From the sequence record MN106245.1: a stretch of 64,000 bases of DNA, one strand, 5' to 3'. The notes below the pieces were generated by a model that was not told where the DNA came from, ran no database searches, and was given only the letters and a program-made list of their open reading frames with translations. A program made the position numbers and the translations under genes. Positions 8,976 through 38,691 of this stretch are shown piece by piece (position 1 is the stretch's first letter; each line of letters starts with the position of its first letter). The stretch comes from Klebsiella phage EI.

Positions 8976-10247
8976 ATGGCTAAAATTAACGAACTTCTGC
9001 GCGAATCAACTGTAACGAATAGCATCCAATATGGTCGCCCGAATCTCGTTGCATTGACCCGCGCTACTACTAAATTGGTTTACACTGACATCGTCGCCGA
9101 ACAACGTACTACTCAGCCTGTTGCTGCTCTGTATGGTGTTAAATACGAAACCCCAGACGATGAACTCTCTTTTAAAACAGGTGCTACTTACGGCGGTGCT
9201 GCTTCTGCATCTGACCGGGATAGTATAGAAGAAATTACTTCTGCAACACACTCTGTGACGGCAGGGACACTTTATAAGTATAACAATGTGGTTTATAAGG
9301 CCTTAGAATCGGGTGCTCTAAACGGCGCTACTATTGACGAAGCTCTGTCTGAAGCCCTTATCACTTTAAAGCTTCGTTTTTATTCTGAGGCAGCTGAAAC
9401 GGTTAAATTTGAATCTAATAATGTAGAAATTAGTTCTGCTAATTTCACTGTTAACAAATGGAACGCTCGAGTTAAAACCCGTAAGCTGAAAACTTCTCTG
9501 ACTGTTGAACTGGCCCAGGATCTAGAAGCTAACGGCTTTGATGCTAACATGTTTCTTGAAGATCTTCTTGCAACAACAATGGCCGATGAAATCAATAAGG
9601 ACGTTCTTCAATCCTTGATTACAGTTTCTAAACGTTATAAAGTTGCAGGCGTTTCTGACGACGGATCTGTTGATTTATCTTACTCAAGCGCCCCTGAAGC
9701 GGCCCGTAAACTTTACCAATTAGTTTGCGAAATGAACAGCCATATTCAAAGTAAAACTTCTTATTCTGGAACCTATGTCGTTGCTAGTGCTCGTGCTGCT
9801 GCTGTTCTGGCTGGGTCCGGATGGCTGAAACACCGCCCTGAAGATGACGAATACCTTGCAGAATCTGCGTACGGGTTCCTGGCTAACGGTCTTCCGGTAT
9901 TTGTTGATGTTAATAGCCCATTAGATTATGTCACTGTAGGTGTTAAAGAATCCTTCGGCGGTAGTGAAGTTATTGGATCTTTGTTCTATGCACCTTATAC
10001 TGAAGGTCTTGATCTTGATAATGACGAACATGTCGGCACCTTTAAGGTAGTTGTCGACCCTGATTCTTTACAGCCTACTATTTCGTTGATGGTTCGGTAC
10101 GCGTTGTCTGCTAATCCATATACCGTTGCTAAAGATGAAAAAGAAGCTCGAGATATTGATGCAACCAATATGGATAAGATGGCAGGTCAAAGCGACATGT
10201 CGGTCCTTCTGGGTGTTAAACTCCCTGCTATTTTAAGTGAGCCATAA
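8976..10247 (+). CDS. 24: head vertex protein gp24 (copy 1)
   Basis: 423 aa; gp23/gp24-fold paralog downstream of gene 23 as in T4; contains the conserved ...KLKTSLTVELAQDLEANGFDA... block. Confidence 0.9.
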   Translation: MAKINELLRESTVTNSIQYGRPNLVALTRATTKLVYTDIVAEQRTTQPVAALYGVKYETPDDELSFKTGATYGGAASASDRDSIEEITSATHSVTAGTLYKYNNVVYKALESGALNGATIDEALSEALITLKLRFYSEAAETVKFESNNVEISSANFTVNKWNARVKTRKLKTSLTVELAQDLEANGFDANMFLEDLLATTMADEINKDVLQSLITVSKRYKVAGVSDDGSVDLSYSSAPEAARKLYQLVCEMNSHIQSKTSYSGTYVVASARAAAVLAGSGWLKHRPEDDEYLAESAYGFLANGLPVFVDVNSPLDYVTVGVKESFGGSEVIGSLFYAPYTEGLDLDNDEHVGTFKVVVDPDSLQPTISLMVRYALSANPYTVAKDEKEARDIDATNMDKMAGQSDMSVLLGVKLPAILSEP

Positions 10248-11515
10248 TGAAAATAGATCGATTAATTCAAGAAAGTACTTTAACCTCTTCTAATCAGGCC
10301 GGGAGGCCTGATTTACTTTCGTACACCAAAGCAACTAATAAAAGAATCTTTAAGGCCCTCGTAGCAGAACAACGCACTCGTCAACCTGTTGCCGCTTTAT
10401 ATGGTATCAGAGTTCTGAACCCTGAAGATAATATGACTTATGTAGGCGGTGCTACATTCGGTGGTCTTATGGGCCCTGAATCCAGAGCCAATACTCCAGA
10501 ATTCGTCGGCCAGGCACCGTATAATAAAGGTGACTTATTCAAACACGAATCTGTCATCTTTAAAGCTCTTGAAGATAATCCTTTTGCTGGATCTACTGAA
10601 ACCAGTCATGACGAGCTTATTTCTGAAGCTATTGCGGCCGGAACTATCCGCATGGTTTCTGATGCCGCTCCAACTGCACAGTTTGAAGCTGGTCACCCTG
10701 AAATAGCTGAAGCCGGGTTCCGTGTCGATAAATGGCAAACTACGGTTAAATCCCGCAAACTTAAAACTTCTGTTACTGTTGAATTAGCCCAAGATCTAGA
10801 AGCTAATGGATTCGATGCCCCTGATTTCTTAGACGATATGCTAGGTATCCAGATGGCTGAAGAAGTAAACAAAGACATTCTTCAATCGTTGGTTACAGTT
10901 TCTAGTAGGTTTAAAGTTCACGGTGTGTCATCTAAAGGGGTTTTAGACCTTACAGATCCTAAATATGATAACGCCCAGGATCGTGCACGTACGCTGTATT
11001 ACTACATGTGCGAGATGAATTCTGCCGTCCAACGCAATACTTCGTTCGCTGGGACATATGCCGCAGCTAGTTCTCGCTGTGCGGCTATTTTAGCTGCTTC
11101 AGGCTGGGTTGAAAAGCGAGATGACGGTGATGAGTTAGCCTACGGCTATCTGAAGAATGGTCTGCCTCTTTACGCGGATATGAATACGCCGGCAGAATAT
11201 GTTATTGTTGGTGTTAATGCAGATATGGGTGAAGGCCAGACGGTGGCATCATTATATTATGCGCCTTATACTGAAGGTATGGATGTAGAAGATGATATTG
11301 ATCAAATGGGCGAATTCAAGATAGTTGTCGACCCTGATTCTTTACAGCCTACTATTTCTTTACTCGCACGGTATGCTTTGTCTGCTAATCCGTACACTGT
11401 TGCTAAAGATGAAAAAGAAGCTCGAATCATCGATGGTTCTGATATGGATAAGATGGCTGGTCAGAGTCTATTAAGTTCTTACCTCGGCGTTAAGTTACCA
11501 CCGCTCGAGAAATAA
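10247..11515 (+). CDS. second gp24-like head vertex protein (tandem paralog)
   Basis: 422 aa; TAATG overlap with copy 1; shares the internal ...KLKTS(L/V)TVELAQDLEANGFDA... block and a near-identical 3' end (VVDPDSLQPTISL..RYALSANPYTVAKDEKEAR..D...MDKMAGQS). Confidence 0.9.
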   Translation: MKIDRLIQESTLTSSNQAGRPDLLSYTKATNKRIFKALVAEQRTRQPVAALYGIRVLNPEDNMTYVGGATFGGLMGPESRANTPEFVGQAPYNKGDLFKHESVIFKALEDNPFAGSTETSHDELISEAIAAGTIRMVSDAAPTAQFEAGHPEIAEAGFRVDKWQTTVKSRKLKTSVTVELAQDLEANGFDAPDFLDDMLGIQMAEEVNKDILQSLVTVSSRFKVHGVSSKGVLDLTDPKYDNAQDRARTLYYYMCEMNSAVQRNTSFAGTYAAASSRCAAILAASGWVEKRDDGDELAYGYLKNGLPLYADMNTPAEYVIVGVNADMGEGQTVASLYYAPYTEGMDVEDDIDQMGEFKIVVDPDSLQPTISLLARYALSANPYTVAKDEKEARIIDGSDMDKMAGQSLLSSYLGVKLPPLEK

Positions 11516-11519
11516 AAAT

Positions 11520-11545
11520 GGGAGCCATAAGGCTCCCTTATAAAT
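11520..11545. terminator. bidirectional terminator hairpin between the gp24 paralog (+) and the DprA-like gene (-)
   Basis: gggagcc-ataa-ggctccc stem-loop flanked by A/T runs on both sides. Confidence 0.65.
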
Positions 11546-12083
11546 TAAAAATATCAAACTTTGGCCTATATTTGTCTTCGAATTTTTTAAATACTTCTGA
11601 ATTGTTCAGATTAATACATTTAATACCATACTTTTTAGCTATATCAACTGCAACTCTAGTTCCGCCTTGAACTCTGCCATTTCTAACCGGGGCCCAGTAT
11701 AAAACTAAATCCACAGGGTTTTGACATGATAATCCAAAAACTTGACATGCATTACGAGCAAACAACTTTCTAACTATATCTGAGCAATTTTCCCAGTACG
11801 AGGTAACTGATTGGGCTATTCTATAACTAGCTGTTTGAACGTCCACTGGTAAGTTTTCAAAACTTACAACCCCTAAGCCAACAAAATGGCCACAGAACCC
11901 GTTGTAAGGTATTATCCTCAGAGATTTAGACCTATCATATTTTGCCAGCCAAGCTTCATCTGAACCAGGCGCTCCGCCACTATAAGCTAAATATCCTTTA
12001 TTTGAAAAGTTTTCACCTATAGATGTCATCAAATCAAGAACTTTGCGGGGCGCCTTTCGAGAACCAATCAGCGCCACTCTCAT
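11538..12083 (-). CDS. DprA/Smf-like (SLOG-superfamily) Rossmann-fold protein
   Basis: 181 aa; VALIGSRKAP...YSGGAPGSDEAW...ARN...GGTRVAVDIA resembles the DprA Rossmann domain layout (GS-R, GxxG-D-A glycine loop, RN motif); its ATG overlaps the rnlB stop (TAATG). Confidence 0.5.
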   Translation of the reverse strand: MRVALIGSRKAPRKVLDLMTSIGENFSNKGYLAYSGGAPGSDEAWLAKYDRSKSLRIIPYNGFCGHFVGLGVVSFENLPVDVQTASYRIAQSVTSYWENCSDIVRKLFARNACQVFGLSCQNPVDLVLYWAPVRNGRVQGGTRVAVDIAKKYGIKCINLNNSEVFKKFEDKYRPKFDIFNL

Positions 12084-33722: not shown

Positions 33723-34054
33723 ACTTCTACCTTAATAAAGTTAAAGCGAACAGTGTATGCAGGTTTACCTTCAATTTCAGTAAAGTCTTTTACTTCACGT
33801 AGATAAACTACATCCGGATTAAATTTCACGATCTCAGAAACCAGGTGATCCAGATCCTGGGCCTTGAAAGATGCAATATCAACTTTGTAACGCTCACCAC
33901 GTTTTATAGTTTGTACAGAAAACGAAGGAGCGCCGATAACAATTACATTAATACCAGCGGCTTTAAGCATAGATGCAAATTCTTCAGTTGCATCCACAGG
34001 CTCTGGCATGGGCGGATTAATATTTACGACAGAGTCGAATTCGTTAAGATTCAT
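33719..34054 (-). CDS. hypothetical protein (31.2 position)
   Basis: 111 aa ORF; ATGA overlap with cd. Confidence 0.5.
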   Translation of the reverse strand: MNLNEFDSVVNINPPMPEPVDATEEFASMLKAAGINVIVIGAPSFSVQTIKRGERYKVDIASFKAQDLDHLVSEIVKFNPDVVYLREVKDFTEIEGKPAYTVRFNFIKVEV

Positions 34055-34614
34055 TATTCACCACAAAAATTACGAATCTGTTCCCAGTTCAGAGAGTTAA
34101 GATTCTTACGGTTATATTCAATAACTTCAATTCCGGCTTCAACTAGAATATCGGCCCAGTCATCAGGAGAGCGATCATAGCGCTCTGCATAAACAACTTT
34201 TTTAATACCTGACTGAGAAATAGCTTTAGTACAATCAGGGCAAGGAGACGCGGTGCAATACAGCGTAGAGCCTTCAATTGAAGAACCTTTACGGGCCGCG
34301 AACAAAATAGCGTTCAGTTCGGCATGGATTTCATTTTTAGAAGACCATTCACTATGTGCAGGTCTGTGTTCTTTAGCCAAAACCACTCGGCCACCTTTAC
34401 CTGAAATTCGCCCAGACCCAGAATTAGGAATAAACCTGGTCCAACCTTGCTGTGCAGCATGGTCACAACAGTTAGTTCCACCAGCCGGAGAACCGTTATA
34501 CCCTGTAGAAATGATGCGACCATCTTTTTCGATAACCGCACCTACTTTCCAAGAGCAACACTTTGATTCTTGGGAAATCAGATACGCGATTTGAAGATAC
34601 GTAGCAGCCCTCAT
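34054..34614 (-). CDS. cd: dCMP deaminase
   Basis: 186 aa; zinc-ligand motifs HAELNAI and PCPDC of the cytidine/deoxycytidylate deaminase family; position. Confidence 0.9.
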   Translation of the reverse strand: MRAATYLQIAYLISQESKCCSWKVGAVIEKDGRIISTGYNGSPAGGTNCCDHAAQQGWTRFIPNSGSGRISGKGGRVVLAKEHRPAHSEWSSKNEIHAELNAILFAARKGSSIEGSTLYCTASPCPDCTKAISQSGIKKVVYAERYDRSPDDWADILVEAGIEVIEYNRKNLNSLNWEQIRNFCGE

Positions 34615-34617
34615 TTT

Positions 34618-34839
34618 TTATTTCCTCAGTTTACAATTATCATAGTGCCATCGAACGGCAGTAGCTTTATTACATATTTTACCACAATGCGGGCAAGGAG
34701 GAACTTTAGCTTTAGGAACACCTTTTAATTTTTCAGAGATGGCAGCTTTTTGACTCTCAGAATTCGGTATTCCTGTCCGTGTAGCACATTTGGCTCTAAG
34801 AACTGGATTCTTCATTCTATCTCTTTGAGCTTTTGCCAT
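34618..34839 (-). CDS. small NUMOD3-like / zinc-finger ORF (possible C-terminal DNA-binding module of the adjacent HNH endonuclease)
   Basis: 73 aa; ...IPNSESQKAAISEKLKG... (NUMOD3-like) plus CPHCGK...HYDNC zinc finger. Confidence 0.45.
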   Translation of the reverse strand: MAKAQRDRMKNPVLRAKCATRTGIPNSESQKAAISEKLKGVPKAKVPPCPHCGKICNKATAVRWHYDNCKLRK

Positions 34840-34874
34840 TTTGGCTTTAGTCTCTTCAGAACGAGGAACTCCTT

Positions 34875-35186
34875 TTAATTTTCGGATAAAAGCTTTTTAG
34901 CTAAAGTGTAATCTCTAGAAGAGACTTTGTATCTTTCAACCCCGTGCTCATTTATCCTAGAATTGCACATCATTAAAAAGGCATAAATCATCGGCCCTTC
35001 ATAAATTTTAGCTAATAATTTGTGAGCTAAAAAGTGTTCTCTTCCTGTTAAATCGACTATGTTGGATTTGTCGTCAGAACCTCCCATAGACTTAGGGAGT
35101 ATATGATGAGATTCTGTATACCCAGAAACTTCTTTTCTGAGTGAGGCCTTTGCCATTAAGGCCTCATAAGCTTTTCTATAGTCCAT
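34875..35186 (-). CDS. HNH homing-endonuclease-like protein
   Basis: 103 aa; ...ESHHILPKSMGGSDDKSNIVDLTGREHFLAHKLL... is a canonical HNH motif (HH...N...H). Confidence 0.75.
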   Translation of the reverse strand: MDYRKAYEALMAKASLRKEVSGYTESHHILPKSMGGSDDKSNIVDLTGREHFLAHKLLAKIYEGPMIYAFLMMCNSRINEHGVERYKVSSRDYTLAKKLLSEN

Positions 35187-36165
35187 TCAGATTACGGAGA
35201 ACCATTTCAGTGGTTTCCCAGCCAATACACGGGTCAGTAATTGACACGCCATATTCAAGGTCTGTAGAAATCTTTTGATTACCTTGTTTAAGATTAGATT
35301 CTAACATAATTCCTCGAACGTTAGCCAATTCTGCTGCTTCAGCACAAACTGCAACCTGGTTCAAGAAAGAACCTTGGGCGTTAGCATGAGAGCAATCAAC
35401 CATCAAGTATTGGTTAACGCCTGCCTTCTGTGCCTGGGCGATAGCATCAAAGACTGATTCTTTATCGTAGTTAGTTCCTTCGGAACCGCCACGCAGAACA
35501 ATATGAGTGCTCTTGTTACCTGGTGCTGAGACGATACCGACTACACCGTTTTGGTCCATACCCATATAGTGGTGTGGGAACGCAGCCGATTGCATAGCGT
35601 CAGTAGCAACCTTAATAGAGCCATTTGTCCCGTTCTTAAAACCGACAGTCATTGGCAGACCTGAAGCAATTTCACGATGAGTCTGTGATTCGGTAGTGCG
35701 AGCACCGATTGCAACCCAAGAGAAAATACCAGACAGATATTTGATAGTGAACGGATCAAGAACTTCTGTTGCCAGTGGTAAACCCATTCGCAAAAGCTTG
35801 CGACATAAGGTGCGAGCAATACCCAGCCCAGTATTAATTTCAAATGAACCATCTAAGAACGGGTCATTGATAAGACCTTTCCAACCGACAGTTGTACGAG
35901 GTTTTTCAAAATAAACACGCATACAAAGCAGAAGATTAGGAAGTTCTTTTTGGAGTTCAGCCAGGCGCTCGCCATAATCAACTGCAGCAACTACGTCATG
36001 GATTGAACAAGGCCCTACTACAACCAGACGGCGTTTATCGCGCCCAGTCATAATCTTATCGATTTCTTGGCGGTGTAAACTGACTTGATTTTGCAGCTCT
36101 GGAGAAATCCTACAACGACGCTCAAGTTCAGCCGGGCTTATCATTCTTTCAATTAAAGGTCTCAT
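35176..36165 (-). CDS. aroG: 3-deoxy-D-arabino-heptulosonate-7-phosphate (DAHP) synthase, class I-alpha (AroG/AroF/AroH type)
   Basis: 329 aa; collinear with E. coli AroG: RRLVVVGPCSIHD, MRVYFEKPRTTVGWKGLINDP, AIGARTTESQTHREIASGL, VGFKNGTNGSIKVA, IMLESNLKQGNQ, ITDPCIGWE. Confidence 0.9.
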   Translation of the reverse strand: MRPLIERMISPAELERRCRISPELQNQVSLHRQEIDKIMTGRDKRRLVVVGPCSIHDVVAAVDYGERLAELQKELPNLLLCMRVYFEKPRTTVGWKGLINDPFLDGSFEINTGLGIARTLCRKLLRMGLPLATEVLDPFTIKYLSGIFSWVAIGARTTESQTHREIASGLPMTVGFKNGTNGSIKVATDAMQSAAFPHHYMGMDQNGVVGIVSAPGNKSTHIVLRGGSEGTNYDKESVFDAIAQAQKAGVNQYLMVDCSHANAQGSFLNQVAVCAEAAELANVRGIMLESNLKQGNQKISTDLEYGVSITDPCIGWETTEMVLRNLNGL

Positions 36166-36208
36166 ATGGTTCCTTACTTACATTATTCTCCAGTAAGAGC
36201 CGAAGCCC

Positions 36209-36445
36209 TTAGAAAGCATATACTGAGGTAGATTGAATATGACTATTAGGCAATAGCTCAATCAAGTAGTACTCTGACTTGAAACCTTTAACGGTAAATA
36301 GATAAGACGCAGGTGTTTCCTGCGTCACATTTAGCTTTGCGCTTGGGTTACGTTCAGATATCTTATTAATCAAAGATTGAGCAAACTTAGGAATTAGCTC
36401 GGCAAACTCTGAAGTTGTGAAGGTCTTATCACTGTACATAAACAT
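36209..36445 (-). CDS. hypothetical protein (78 aa)
   Basis: ORF in the cd-pseT hyperplastic region. Confidence 0.4.
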   Translation of the reverse strand: MFMYSDKTFTTSEFAELIPKFAQSLINKISERNPSAKLNVTQETPASYLFTVKGFKSEYYLIELLPNSHIQSTSVYAF

Positions 36446-36707
36446 TAACCTCTTGGGTGCCGAAAATGCCTGTTACTTCAACAGTGAATCCACCACCGCC
36501 TTCAAAGACAATTTCGACAACTGCCTGAAGGCCAATGCTATTTACTTCGAGAGATACTTTACCATGATTTGGAATAAGCGTATTAATAGCACTTGTGAAA
36601 TCCGCGTGCATTTTAGCTTTCAAGGAGTTGTCAAGAGTATCAGCACAGTAATTACCAACAATCTGCAATGCAACTACTTTAACTACTTCAGAATATTTAG
36701 GGAACAT
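36429..36707 (-). CDS. hypothetical protein (92 aa)
   Basis: ORF in the cd-pseT hyperplastic region. Confidence 0.4.
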   Translation of the reverse strand: MFPKYSEVVKVVALQIVGNYCADTLDNSLKAKMHADFTSAINTLIPNHGKVSLEVNSIGLQAVVEIVFEGGGGFTVEVTGIFGTQEVNVYVQ

Positions 36708-36716
36708 AGCTTTTCC

Positions 36717-36932
36717 TTAATGAACGGTGTGTACTTTAACATTAACAACGAAATGCGTATTAACATTAGAAAGAGGTAAAAACTCAACGTGGTACTCATC
36801 TTTGTAACGAGTGTTCAGGTCTGTACGAATACGCGCCAGTTCATTAATCAAAGCTGGGGTCACGCCCATTCCAACACATTTCCGAAGCATTTTGTAAGCT
36901 TCTTCTTCAACTTCATGATGCTTATTGTACAT
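36717..36932 (-). CDS. hypothetical protein (71 aa)
   Basis: ORF in the cd-pseT hyperplastic region. Confidence 0.4.
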   Translation of the reverse strand: MYNKHHEVEEEAYKMLRKCVGMGVTPALINELARIRTDLNTRYKDEYHVEFLPLSNVNTHFVVNVKVHTVH

Positions 36933-37090
36933 ATCATTTTCCTCAAGTACAAGTAGACTGGAAGTACATCATATCATGCCTTCCAGCCGTTGTAAACAGC
37001 TAGAAATCTTTCCACTTTCGGCCTTGCTGCCAGTCTGGGTGATTCAATCTTGGGTCATTAGGATCTGTGGTAGAAGACTTCTCTCCGGTT

Positions 37091-37685
37091 CTAGAAATGA
37101 GCCATTTTTCTAGATTTAGCAATTTCAGAATATTTCTTTTTAGCTTCATCAGTTCTTATTTTACCTGTGTTGGCTTCAGAGATTCTAGCGCTCCACTGCT
37201 TAATAGCAGATTCACTCATAAAATCTTTTACATTTTTACCGAACATAGGGTTAGAAGAACCTTCAAAGGACCCACCTCGTTCTAATCTAGTATCTCTGGA
37301 TTTTAGCCCATGCCCCGGAAGTTTTTTACCTTTTATCCAGGGTTCTGCACCTGAAGCGTATCGAGCCCTTTTGGCTTTTTGATATTTTACGAGAAGTTTC
37401 TTCACTAGAATTGTTGTTAAGCCCGTTATCGTTAATAAAATCCCAGCCGCCTTCTCCACCAGGCTTTAAGTTGTAGTTAGTATCTAAGCTAACAAACTGC
37501 TCGGTTACTAAGTCTTTTTCAAGAGAATAAGCTTCTTCTTTCGTATCGAAGATTGCTAAAATCTCTTTAACAAAGGAAGATTTACCGTACTTGGCTTCAG
37601 CATTCTTAAATGCTGTCCCAGACCCTAAATAAGAATCGTTCTCTTCTAATGTCTTGTGAACACCGATGTAAATTTTGTTATTCAC
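37091..37685 (-). pseudogene. GIY-YIG (Seg-like) homing endonuclease gene split by a frameshift
   Basis: N-terminal ORF (37326..37685) has KIYIGVHKT...YLGSG (GIY-YIG) and a NUMOD3-like SEETSRKISKSQKG; the second ORF (37091..37459) continues with NUMOD3-like GSSNPMFGKNVKD...SESAIKQWSARISEANTGK in another frame; the frame switch lies near tcaaaaagccaaaaggg. Confidence 0.6.
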
Positions 37686-37776
37686 AAAGACATGTTGTTT
37701 TATATACCGTATGTTTTTCCATAAACACCTCTAATGTTATAAAGGTATTTATTAAGTAAACTACGGTGATTTCTAA

Positions 37777-38691
<915 letters not shown>

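Follow-up and report, generated by a model that had tools for sequence, protein, structure and literature searches.

Between cd and pseT, the 64,000-nucleotide stretch of Klebsiella phage EI analysed here (MN106245.1; hereafter the window) carries an ORF for a DAHP synthase, and the locus raises the question of where a T4-like phage obtained such a gene, what its product may contribute to infection and whether this product still answers to the aromatic amino acids that shut off the host isozymes. A preliminary description, made from the sequence alone, had presented the gene as unusual, as host-type and as consistent with acquisition through flanking endonuclease genes. Its presence is, however, already known and ordinary for this phage group, leaving the picture of T4-like phages unchanged: more than 200 GenBank phage records annotate it, it has a PHROG family of its own, and a 2025 paper names it as an AMG, in a speculative mention (PMC11845039). 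The papers on phages F48 and Marfa make no mention of the DAHP synthase gene, and in the searchable literature no experimental (biochemical or expression) data on any phage DAHP synthase were found. In the following sections we argue from sequence comparison that the gene is best read as that of an active, probably feedback-blind DAHP synthase of a phage lineage, and an accessory metabolic gene of the cd-pseT block.

Class and active site of the enzyme

The ORF (35176..36165, minus strand, 329 aa) encodes a class I-alpha DAHP synthase of a Marfavirus-like T4-like Klebsiella phage; its coordinates and all six motifs quoted in the preliminary description (GPCSIHD, KPRTTVGWKGLINDP, IGARTTESQ, VGFKNGT, MLESNLKQGNQ and ITDPCIGWE) were confirmed in the translation. 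The protein matches the Pfam family DAHP_synth_1 (PF00793; E=4.4e-76, 256 bits against a cut-off of 25.5) and passes two NCBIfam models, the aroFGH equivalog TIGR00034 (428 bits, cut-off 173) and NF009395 (454 bits, cut-off 343). Its top solved-structure matches are DAHP synthases (E~1e-98), and the match to PHROG 5045 ('phospho-2-dehydro-3-deoxyheptonate aldolase') extends over 325 of 341 profile positions (E=1.1e-164). KDO8P synthase and the type I-beta and type II DAHP synthases were considered and rejected, the search returning sub-threshold I-beta matches only (about 19 bits; cut-offs 268-335).

The alignment with E. coli AroG, AroF and AroH is collinear, at 50, 49 and 45% identity, respectively, and the phage enzyme has the fold family and the metal, PEP and E4P ligands in common with these isozymes (PDB 6AGM, 1KFL/1QR7). 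The metal ligands C61, H268, E302 and D326 of AroG correspond to C53, H260, E289 and D311 of the window protein, and the PEP/E4P residues R92, K97, R99, T100, R165, K186 and R234 to R83, K88, R90, T91, R156, K177 and R225. The KPRT motif of DAHP synthases is intact, and none of the 10 catalytic residues tabulated varies among the 124 aligned sequences. With the profiles passed and the catalytic residues aligned with those of AroG, the enzyme appears catalytically complete, as had been proposed, and is very likely active in the formation of DAHP from PEP and erythrose-4-phosphate. Differences from AroG comprise the length (329 vs 350 aa), the loss of residues 2-9, short deletions at AroG positions 86, 289-291 and 315-316, the absence of the C-terminal tail and the substitutions P150I, Q151K, S180P, F209Y, T223A and L130C. 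The window protein fails the AroG-specific NCBIfam model NF006723 (365 bits, cut-off 568) and, likewise, the AroH-specific cut-off.

A phage-resident lineage upstream of cd

The location between cd and pseT given in the preliminary description is correct. Every genus examined has the dCMP deaminase gene cd (34054..34614, minus strand, in the window) as the conserved neighbour downstream of the DAHP synthase gene; on the upstream side the variable region is bounded by the polynucleotide kinase/phosphatase gene pseT (37777..38679, minus strand), and T4 has only cd.1-cd.5 in this place. Three small cd.x-type ORFs identified by profile matches (36717-36932, PHROG 3609; 36429-36707, DUF7355; 36209-36445, DUF7320; all minus strand) precede the DAHP synthase gene in the same orientation and are syntenic in Marfa, F48 and Biddle_MM4. 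A Shine-Dalgarno-like AAGGAA (36170..36175, minus strand) precedes the ATG at 36165 by 4 nt, and an equivalent RBS is annotated in Marfa. At the edge of a Seg-like insertion, upstream of both the DAHP synthase gene and the three ORFs, a candidate sigma-70/T4-early-like promoter, (G)TTTACA-N17-TG-TATGAT, is found at 36968..36996 (minus strand) as a consensus match only; in the promoter and terminator scan, promoter-like sites of the region did not exceed chance (6 found, 11 expected). Co-transcription with the cd-pseT block, whose genes have the same orientation, is probable.

Homologues are carried by 212 phage records, including 23 Klebsiella phages with the gene at 92-97% nucleotide identity, and the same locus is occupied in Marfavirus, Mosigvirus, Kanagawavirus, Winklervirus and Bragavirus; the metagenomic T4-like contig L019 holds a 54%-identical copy at the equivalent locus. 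Cross-genus identity (61-67%) tracks that of cd and pseT. T4 and RB69 lack a DAHP synthase gene, and the gene is therefore dispensable. Members of PHROG 5045 include CPT_Marfa_230 of Klebsiella phage Marfa, gp193 of vB_Kpn_F48, gp250 of Escherichia phage HX01 and ORF-233 of Edwardsiella phage PEi20, and these relatives share with the window the order pseT - cd.x ORFs - DAHP synthase - cd, the short N-terminus and an I-K/P/Y signature at the allosteric site, the window differing by an HNH gene on the cd side of the DAHP synthase gene and by a length of 329 instead of 330 aa. The genes of Marfa and Biddle_MM4 are 96-97% identical in nucleotides to that of the window, and the Marfa protein is identical in amino acids over residues 1-327, the two genes being separated by 36 synonymous and no non-synonymous differences. 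Among five Klebsiella phages, dN/dS is 0.00-0.05, compared with 0.02-0.07 for cd and 0.03-0.06 for pseT; the gene is under strong purifying selection.

In a neighbour-joining (NJ) tree the phage copies form a single clade with 100/100 bootstrap support, at Kimura distances of 0.80 to AroG, 0.83 to AroF and 0.68-0.70 to the nearest cellular sequences. No cellular relative exceeds 55% identity, and the nearest ones are spread over diverse phyla, with Geomonas, Halomonas and Dehalococcoidia among them. The NJ sister sequence, P0075, sits on a 2-kb contig. One match (49%) labelled 'Acinetobacter phage MD-2021a' was left out, as it lies beside the cobalamin synthesis genes cobS and cobT and looks bacterial.

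The endonuclease genes near the locus are only in part as they had been described. An HNH homing endonuclease gene (34618..35186, minus strand) does adjoin the DAHP synthase gene, on the side of cd, and the GIY-YIG gene is disrupted; the HNH gene is, however, frameshifted as well, and the GIY-YIG gene is not adjacent, with the three small ORFs and about 830 bp in between. Relative to the intact 179-aa version of Biddle_MM4, a 1-bp deletion in an A-run near 34879 divides the HNH gene into fragments of 103 and 73 aa. Its first ATG overlaps the DAHP synthase stop by 11 nt, and the insertion has altered the last 2-3 codons of the DAHP synthase gene (tail ...LRNLNGL vs ...LRNLNNKG in pzk-kv8). The Seg-like GIY-YIG pseudogene (~37000..37722, minus strand) shows at least four single-base insertions (37734, 37688, 37368 and 37109) against its intact counterpart in Enterobacter phage EnC07 (239 aa). 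Neither copy is thus an intact endonuclease gene. The frameshifts may alternatively stem from sequencing error in homopolymers; a whole-window indel scan against Biddle_MM4 gave many compensating alignment indels in divergent regions and no clean separation of frameshift from error. The HNH gene is absent in Marfa, F48 and pzk-kv8, and in these phages as well as in HX01, PEi20 and contig L019 the DAHP synthase gene stands directly against cd without an endonuclease. By this comparison, both segments, HNH (566 bp) and Seg-like (~800 bp), were inserted later. They resemble the free-standing endonucleases of the seg/mob type of T4, which likewise lie between conserved T4-like genes and occur in some close relatives but not in others, with the difference that both window copies are frameshifted.

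Two other explanations are hardly compatible with these data. Recent capture of an enterobacterial host AroG, perhaps via the flanking homing endonucleases, could be suspected from the endonuclease genes nearby, and homing endonucleases can co-convert flanking markers and so aid spread between related phages; since endonuclease-free relatives have the gene abutting cd, however, the decaying copies of the window were not its carriers, contrary to the route of acquisition first proposed. The label 'host-type' or 'AroG-like' has to be given up as well, in view of the identity of 45-50% to AroG, AroF and AroH, the failed AroG model, a Gly at the position of AroG S211, the distance of all cellular relatives and the phage-only clade; nesting within the enterobacterial AroG or its isozymes, for which a phylogeny had been suggested as a check, is excluded by the homologue search and the bootstrapped tree. 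The GC content of the gene (44%; GC3 35.5%) matches that of its phage neighbours. Host contamination or a chimeric assembly, named beforehand as a possible refutation, is equally excluded, because the gene recurs at one locus in independent genomes, namely those of 23 Klebsiella phages, each sequenced independently, and about 190 further records from several genera. Taken together, capture or contamination is extremely improbable. The second explanation, that the gene is degenerate and without function or that it encodes another enzyme using PEP, for instance KDO8P synthase, could draw on the reduced length and the small internal deletions, but dN/dS does not exceed 0.05, the catalytic residues including KPRT are intact and the aroFGH equivalog is passed, which at the sequence level makes the whole explanation very improbable.

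Remodelling of the feedback-inhibition site

In AroG, the feedback pocket is formed by P150, Q151, L175, L179, S180, F209, S/G211 and V221 together with the N-terminus of the neighbouring subunit, and the side chains of Q151 and S180 bind the inhibitor (PMC9529685). The P150L variant is completely Phe-resistant, and S180F and F209A/S are resistant (PMC9529685). In the window protein the N-terminus is 8 residues shorter than that of AroG, in agreement with the preliminary description, and the shortened N-terminus is found in 25 of 25 phage-clade proteins (the window copy and P0001-P0024), with AroG residues 2-9 missing in more than 80% of the phage-clade representatives. Feedback-resistant mutants of the AroF N-terminus are known, namely N8K and the deletion of Ile11. 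S180 is replaced by Pro and F209 by Tyr in 25/25 phage-clade proteins each, P150 by Ile in 24/25 and Q151 by Lys in 24/25. Among the cellular homologues (n=99), P150 is kept in about 96%, S180 in 99% and F209 in 100%, and position 151 is Q or E with few exceptions. Five of 323 positions strictly discriminate the phage from the cellular clades, and three of these five belong to a set of 11 feedback-resistance positions from the literature (Fisher p=2.9e-4).

Of the two regulatory decorations of the I-alpha class, the N-terminal extension and an inserted hairpin around AroG 211-224, the hairpin region aligns without gaps in the window protein, and the position of S211 is taken by G202, a Gly as in AroF (G212) and not the Ser of the Phe-type. 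We take Ser (Phe-type) or Gly (Tyr-type) at this position to be a specificity determinant, on the strength of work on yeast Aro3/Aro4. With P150I, Q151K, S180P, F209Y and the deletion of the N-terminal cap, several of the elements that form the aromatic amino acid feedback pocket of AroG are not retained in the sequences of the phage clade. Compared with engineered resistant AroG (P150L, D146N, S180F, F209A, L175D), the phage clade is naturally changed at P150, S180 and F209, and the N-terminal segment and Q151, which is involved in Phe inhibition (PMC9529685), are altered in addition. The phage residues differ from those of the engineered mutants (Ile and not Leu at 150, Pro and not Phe at 180, a conservative F-to-Y exchange at 209), and several positions are changed at once. 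These clade-wide changes strengthen what had been a speculation on altered regulation, and no description of them was found in the searchable literature. The phage DAHP synthase is thus predicted to be insensitive to aromatic amino acids, a prediction which we think has the better prospect of being right; because the allosteric pocket is remodelled across the phage lineage, the enzyme most likely sustains shikimate flux whatever the aromatic pools.

Possible roles during infection

The explanation which we propose starts from an old, phage-resident DAHP synthase lineage, kept by some T4-like phages as an accessory metabolic gene directly ahead of cd and probably expressed alongside the co-oriented genes of the cd-pseT block, adding DAHP synthase activity to the infected cell. 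With the pocket through which Phe, Tyr and Trp shut off the host isozymes remodelled (cap deleted, P150I, Q151K, S180P, F209Y), carbon would stay flowing into the shikimate pathway regardless of the aromatic amino acid pools. The product from which the phage benefits might be aromatic amino acids, needed for late proteins, or else folate or quinones derived from chorismate. No other shikimate gene is annotated in the relative Biddle_MM4 (0-160 kb of 167.8 kb), and the sole step supplied would therefore be the committed, feedback-controlled one.

An active enzyme could also have remained under allosteric control, either by binding aromatics differently or with a pocket retuned to an effector relevant to infection. 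Conservation of the replacement residues I141, K142, P171, Y200, A214 and C121 is about 94-100%, against an overall identity of 54-67% in the clade, which is the pattern of a constrained functional site and fits a still-functional pocket, for instance for another effector, better than simple loss; the Gly kept at AroG position 211, the state of the Tyr-sensitive AroF, points in the same direction. Against this stand the loss of Q151 and S180, which bind the inhibitor main chain, and of the neighbouring subunit's N-terminal cap, and the observation that single changes at feedback positions abolish AroG inhibition (PMC9529685), so that we regard retained regulation as rather unlikely. The benefit might, on the other hand, reside in the consumption of substrates, with E4P removal pulling the non-oxidative pentose-phosphate reactions towards nucleotide pentoses, or with PEP being redirected. 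An unregulated enzyme would suit this role, which would also accord with the position of the gene amid those of nucleotide metabolism. All genera examined show tight linkage to cd, which the gene adjoins or overlaps in four phages and in contig L019, and a full T4 nucleotide toolkit is carried alongside no other annotated shikimate enzyme (Biddle_MM4, same 160 kb). Linkage in the hyperplastic regions of T4-like phages is, however, no evidence of shared function, and the sequence fits sink and supply alike; as the main benefit, substrate consumption seems improbable. The two are compatible, and a substrate sink could operate together with supply of the shikimate pathway.

Returning to the proposed supply of an unregulated shikimate entry step, a wider formulation can be offered tentatively, as a possibility which we rate at somewhat less than even: T4-like phages of at least five genera may possess a private DAHP synthase lineage with a rebuilt pocket, either feedback-blind or responsive to an infection-specific effector, by which entry into the shikimate pathway would be uncoupled from host control and might feed folate. 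Within this uncoupling, the product that counts might be chorismate-derived folate for the folate-dependent reactions of thymidylate synthase, dCMP hydroxymethylase and dihydrofolate reductase, rather than amino acids.

The clade-wide remodelling of the feedback site is the part of these findings that could matter. If the enzymes are feedback-blind, the bioproduction of aromatic compounds could draw on them as stable feedback-resistant DAHP synthases that evolved in nature, and the gene would offer a simple genetic handle on the aromatic and chorismate-derived needs of T4-like infection, a genetic test being feasible with RB69, which is without the gene, and its relative HX01, which carries it. 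Feedback-blindness would, moreover, make this lineage a plain example of host metabolic control, outside nucleotide metabolism, being overridden by a lytic phage.

Identity and occurrence of the gene

The open reading frame at 35176..36165 on the minus strand encodes a 329-aa protein whose translation contains all the motifs quoted in the preliminary description, and its identification as a DAHP synthase is, on sequence comparison, confirmed far beyond chance. The protein matches the Pfam family DAHP_synth_1 (E=4.4e-76), scores above the cut-offs of the NCBIfam equivalog aroFGH (428 versus 173 bits) and of the subfamily model NF009395 (454 versus 343 bits), and its top matches among solved structures are likewise DAHP synthases, namely E. 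coli AroF and the Neisseria meningitidis enzyme (332 bits each) and E. coli AroG (314 bits). In an alignment with AroG, AroF and AroH of E. coli K-12 (NC_000913.3), the metal ligands C61, H268, E302 and D326 (AroG numbering) are all kept, as are the PEP/E4P ligands R92, K97, R99, T100, R165, K186 and R234. Among five Klebsiella-phage alleles, dN/dS amounts to 0.00-0.05, a constraint comparable to that on the neighboring genes cd (0.02-0.07) and pseT (0.03-0.06), and over 327 codons all 36 differences between the window and Marfa genes are synonymous. The low dN/dS, taken together with the intact catalytic residues, supports the view that an active enzyme is encoded.

The gene itself is already known and not new. 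The window copy is a new allele, its protein being identical to that of Marfa over 327 residues. By megablast, 23 Klebsiella phage records contain the gene (92-97% identity), mostly under the names phospho-2-dehydro-3-deoxyheptonate aldolase, DAHP synthase or aroF, and in two cases as hypothetical protein. Full-length homologues were detected by tblastn in a total of 212 phage records; Escherichia and Shigella phages (60-80% identity) account for about 160 of them, and the remaining hosts include Edwardsiella, Enterobacter, Serratia, Erwinia, Kosakonia and Proteus. The matching PHROGs family (phrog_5045, E=1e-164) is filed under 'moron, auxiliary metabolic gene and host takeover', and a Klebsiella-phage study published in PLoS One in 2025 lists a phage DAHP synthase as an amino-acid-related auxiliary metabolic gene, speculating that it aids aromatic amino acid synthesis (PMC11845039). 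The gene goes unmentioned in the founding papers on F48 and Marfa, and the searchable literature yielded no experimental work on a DAHP synthase from any phage.

Lineage and locus of the phage enzyme

The preliminary description regarded the gene as host-type and AroG-like, a view that the wider comparison contradicts. The window protein is only 50, 49 and 45% identical to AroG, AroF and AroH, respectively, and falls short of both the AroG-specific equivalog (365 bits versus 568) and the AroH model (380 versus 463). When 5.8 billion proteins were searched, the best 24 clusters all consisted of phage proteins 319-343 aa long (54-97% identity); beyond these, identity is at most 55% and the matches are cellular enzymes, including those of Geomonas, Halomonas and Dehalococcoidia, with no enterobacterial group among them. 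The 25 phage-type proteins group as a single clade in all 100 bootstrap replicates of a neighbor-joining tree built from 124 sequences. The GC content of the gene (44.4%; GC3 35.5%) is similar to that of the adjoining cd and pseT, and its identities to the orthologues of HX01, PEi20, CHI14 and Pm5461 (66.6, 66.0, 62.6 and 61.1%) rank like those of cd (77, 87, 69 and 68%) and pseT (65, 67, 54 and 44%), mostly lying between them (PEi20: 66.0 versus 67 for pseT). Recent capture from Klebsiella is rejected on account of the 45-50% identity, the phage-only clade, and a GC, GC3 and divergence that match those of cd and pseT. The gene represents an old phage lineage of DAHP synthase, which diverged together with its carrier phages.

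Two further matches were observed. The neighbor-joining sister of the phage clade is a 357-aa DAHP synthase (P0075) on a Logan contig of only 2 kb (SRR28702527_769960), whose allosteric residues are also non-canonical (I150, R151, A180). A match in the record 'Acinetobacter phage MD-2021a' (CAKLQF020000009.1) adjoins cobS, cobT and alpha-ribazole phosphatase genes, and the contig resembles a bacterial chromosome, not a phage.

The locus is bounded on one side by cd, the dCMP deaminase gene (34054-34614), and on the other by pseT, which encodes polynucleotide kinase (37777-38679); between the two, T4 has only cd.1-cd.5, as the preliminary description rightly held. Two Klebsiella phages of the genus Marfavirus, Biddle_MM4 and Marfa, are 96-97% identical in DNA to this region. 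An arrangement in which pseT is followed by small cd.x ORFs, DAHP synthase, none to two small ORFs and cd is shared by the Marfaviruses Marfa, F48, pzk-kv8 and Biddle_MM4, by HX01 (Mosigvirus), PEi20 (Kanagawavirus), CHI14 (Winklervirus) and Pm5461 (Bragavirus), and by a metagenomic T4-like contig whose DAHP synthase is only 54% identical. Presence varies even within one genus: RB69 (NC_004928, 134000-144000) has no such gene at cd, whereas HX01 and other Mosigviruses carry it, so lateral spread among related phages by recombination is possible. RB69 and HX01 also provide a natural isogenic-like pair for functional tests.

Endonuclease genes are indeed found near the DAHP synthase gene, one HNH and one Seg-like GIY-YIG, in two segments that are extra relative to Marfa: a 566-bp insertion between DAHP synthase and cd (34619-35184) and a 798-bp segment replacing 311 bp beside pseT (36998-37795). 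The HNH homing-endonuclease gene (34618-35186, minus strand), whose insertion changed the final 2-3 codons of DAHP synthase, is shared with Biddle_MM4, where it is intact (179 aa); in the window, one A is gone from an A5 run (~34879), leaving pieces of 103 and 73 aa; either genuine decay or a sequencing error in the homopolymer could account for this. This disruption had been overlooked, and only that of the GIY-YIG gene (37000-37722, minus strand), which carries at least four single-base insertions and is probably a pseudogene, had been recognized. No other Klebsiella phage record contains the Seg-like gene, and its nearest relative (83% nucleotide identity, intact, 239 aa) lies beside pseT in the Enterobacter Karamviruses EnC07, KMB20 and Ent31, implying that it moved between phage genera. 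The proposal that these endonucleases carried the DAHP synthase gene into the locus is not supported: in Marfa, F48, pzk-kv8, HX01, PEi20 and the metagenomic contig, no endonuclease separates the gene from cd, which it adjoins directly or overlaps, and both endonucleases arrived later in an already conserved locus.

Elsewhere in the window, tandem Gp23-family (gp24-like capsid vertex) paralogues of 423 and 422 aa (8976-10247 and 10247-11515, plus strand), 54% identical to each other, occupy the position of a single Biddle_MM4 gene, with which the first copy shares only ~68% DNA identity. A 181-aa ORF (11538-12083, minus strand) lies within a ~1.9-kb segment missing from Biddle_MM4; its sole match, to DNA recombination-mediator protein A (DprA-like), is sub-threshold (18.8 bits versus a cut-off of 29.6).

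Expression signals and pathway context

A Shine-Dalgarno sequence (AAGGAA) precedes the start codon of the DAHP synthase gene by 4 nt, and co-transcription with the cd-pseT genes is plausible because the gene is co-oriented with this block. A T4-early-like sequence, (G)TTTACA-N17-TG-TATGAT, at 36996-36968 upstream of three co-oriented small ORFs is a promoter candidate only, promoter-like matches not being enriched in the region. A possible UUCG-tetraloop hairpin (AGGGC-TTCG-GCTCT, 36196-36209, minus strand) lies directly behind the stop codon of the small ORF upstream, ahead of the ribosome-binding site of DAHP synthase.

The annotation of 0-160 kb of the 167.8-kb relative Biddle_MM4 contains the usual T4 nucleotide and folate-dependent set (ribonucleotide reductase, thymidylate synthase, dihydrofolate reductase, thymidine kinase and cd) and a second thymidylate-synthase-family gene, with no other shikimate-pathway gene annotated there. 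This suggests that the phage would supply only the committed, feedback-controlled step, while host enzymes would do the rest. Candidates for the benefiting product are aromatic amino acids, folate via p-aminobenzoate, quinones, or the mere removal of E4P or PEP.

Remodeling of the feedback site

The inhibitor pocket of AroG is formed by residues ~146-151, 175-180 and 209-221 together with the N-terminus of the neighboring subunit; the side chains of Q151 and S180 bind the inhibitor main chain, P150L and D146N confer complete Phe resistance, and S180F, L175D, L179A, F209A/S and V221A confer resistance, too (PMC9529685). At these positions, the window protein has I141 (P150), K142 (Q151), P171 (S180) and Y200 (F209), and AroG residues 2-9 have no counterpart. 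The short N-terminus, the Pro at S180 and the Tyr at F209 occur in all 25 proteins of the phage clade, the window copy included, and the Ile at P150 and the Lys at Q151 in 24 of 25 each, despite overall identities down to 54-67%. Among 99 cellular homologues, P150 (~96%), S180 (99%) and F209 (100%) are kept, and position 151 is almost always Q or E. A scan of phage versus cellular sequences over 323 aligned positions, which used no prior knowledge of the site, returned five strict discriminators (L130C, P150I, S180P, F209Y and T223A), three of which coincide with feedback positions from the published set of 11 (odds ratio 58, Fisher p=2.9e-4).

Catalytic residues kept alongside changed feedback positions indicate that the feedback site has been specifically and uniformly rebuilt across the phage clade, with the catalytic machinery untouched. 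The preliminary description had speculated on altered regulation from the short N-terminus, and the clade-wide changes P150I, Q151K, S180P and F209Y make this much firmer. In the most economical reading, aromatic amino acids would no longer shut the enzyme off; the replacement residues at the feedback positions are themselves fixed across the clade, which could mean that the remodeled pocket now serves another purpose. This clade-wide remodeling of the allosteric site is the part worth following up, and it yields a biochemical prediction that is sharp and cheap, the loss of shut-off by aromatic amino acids.
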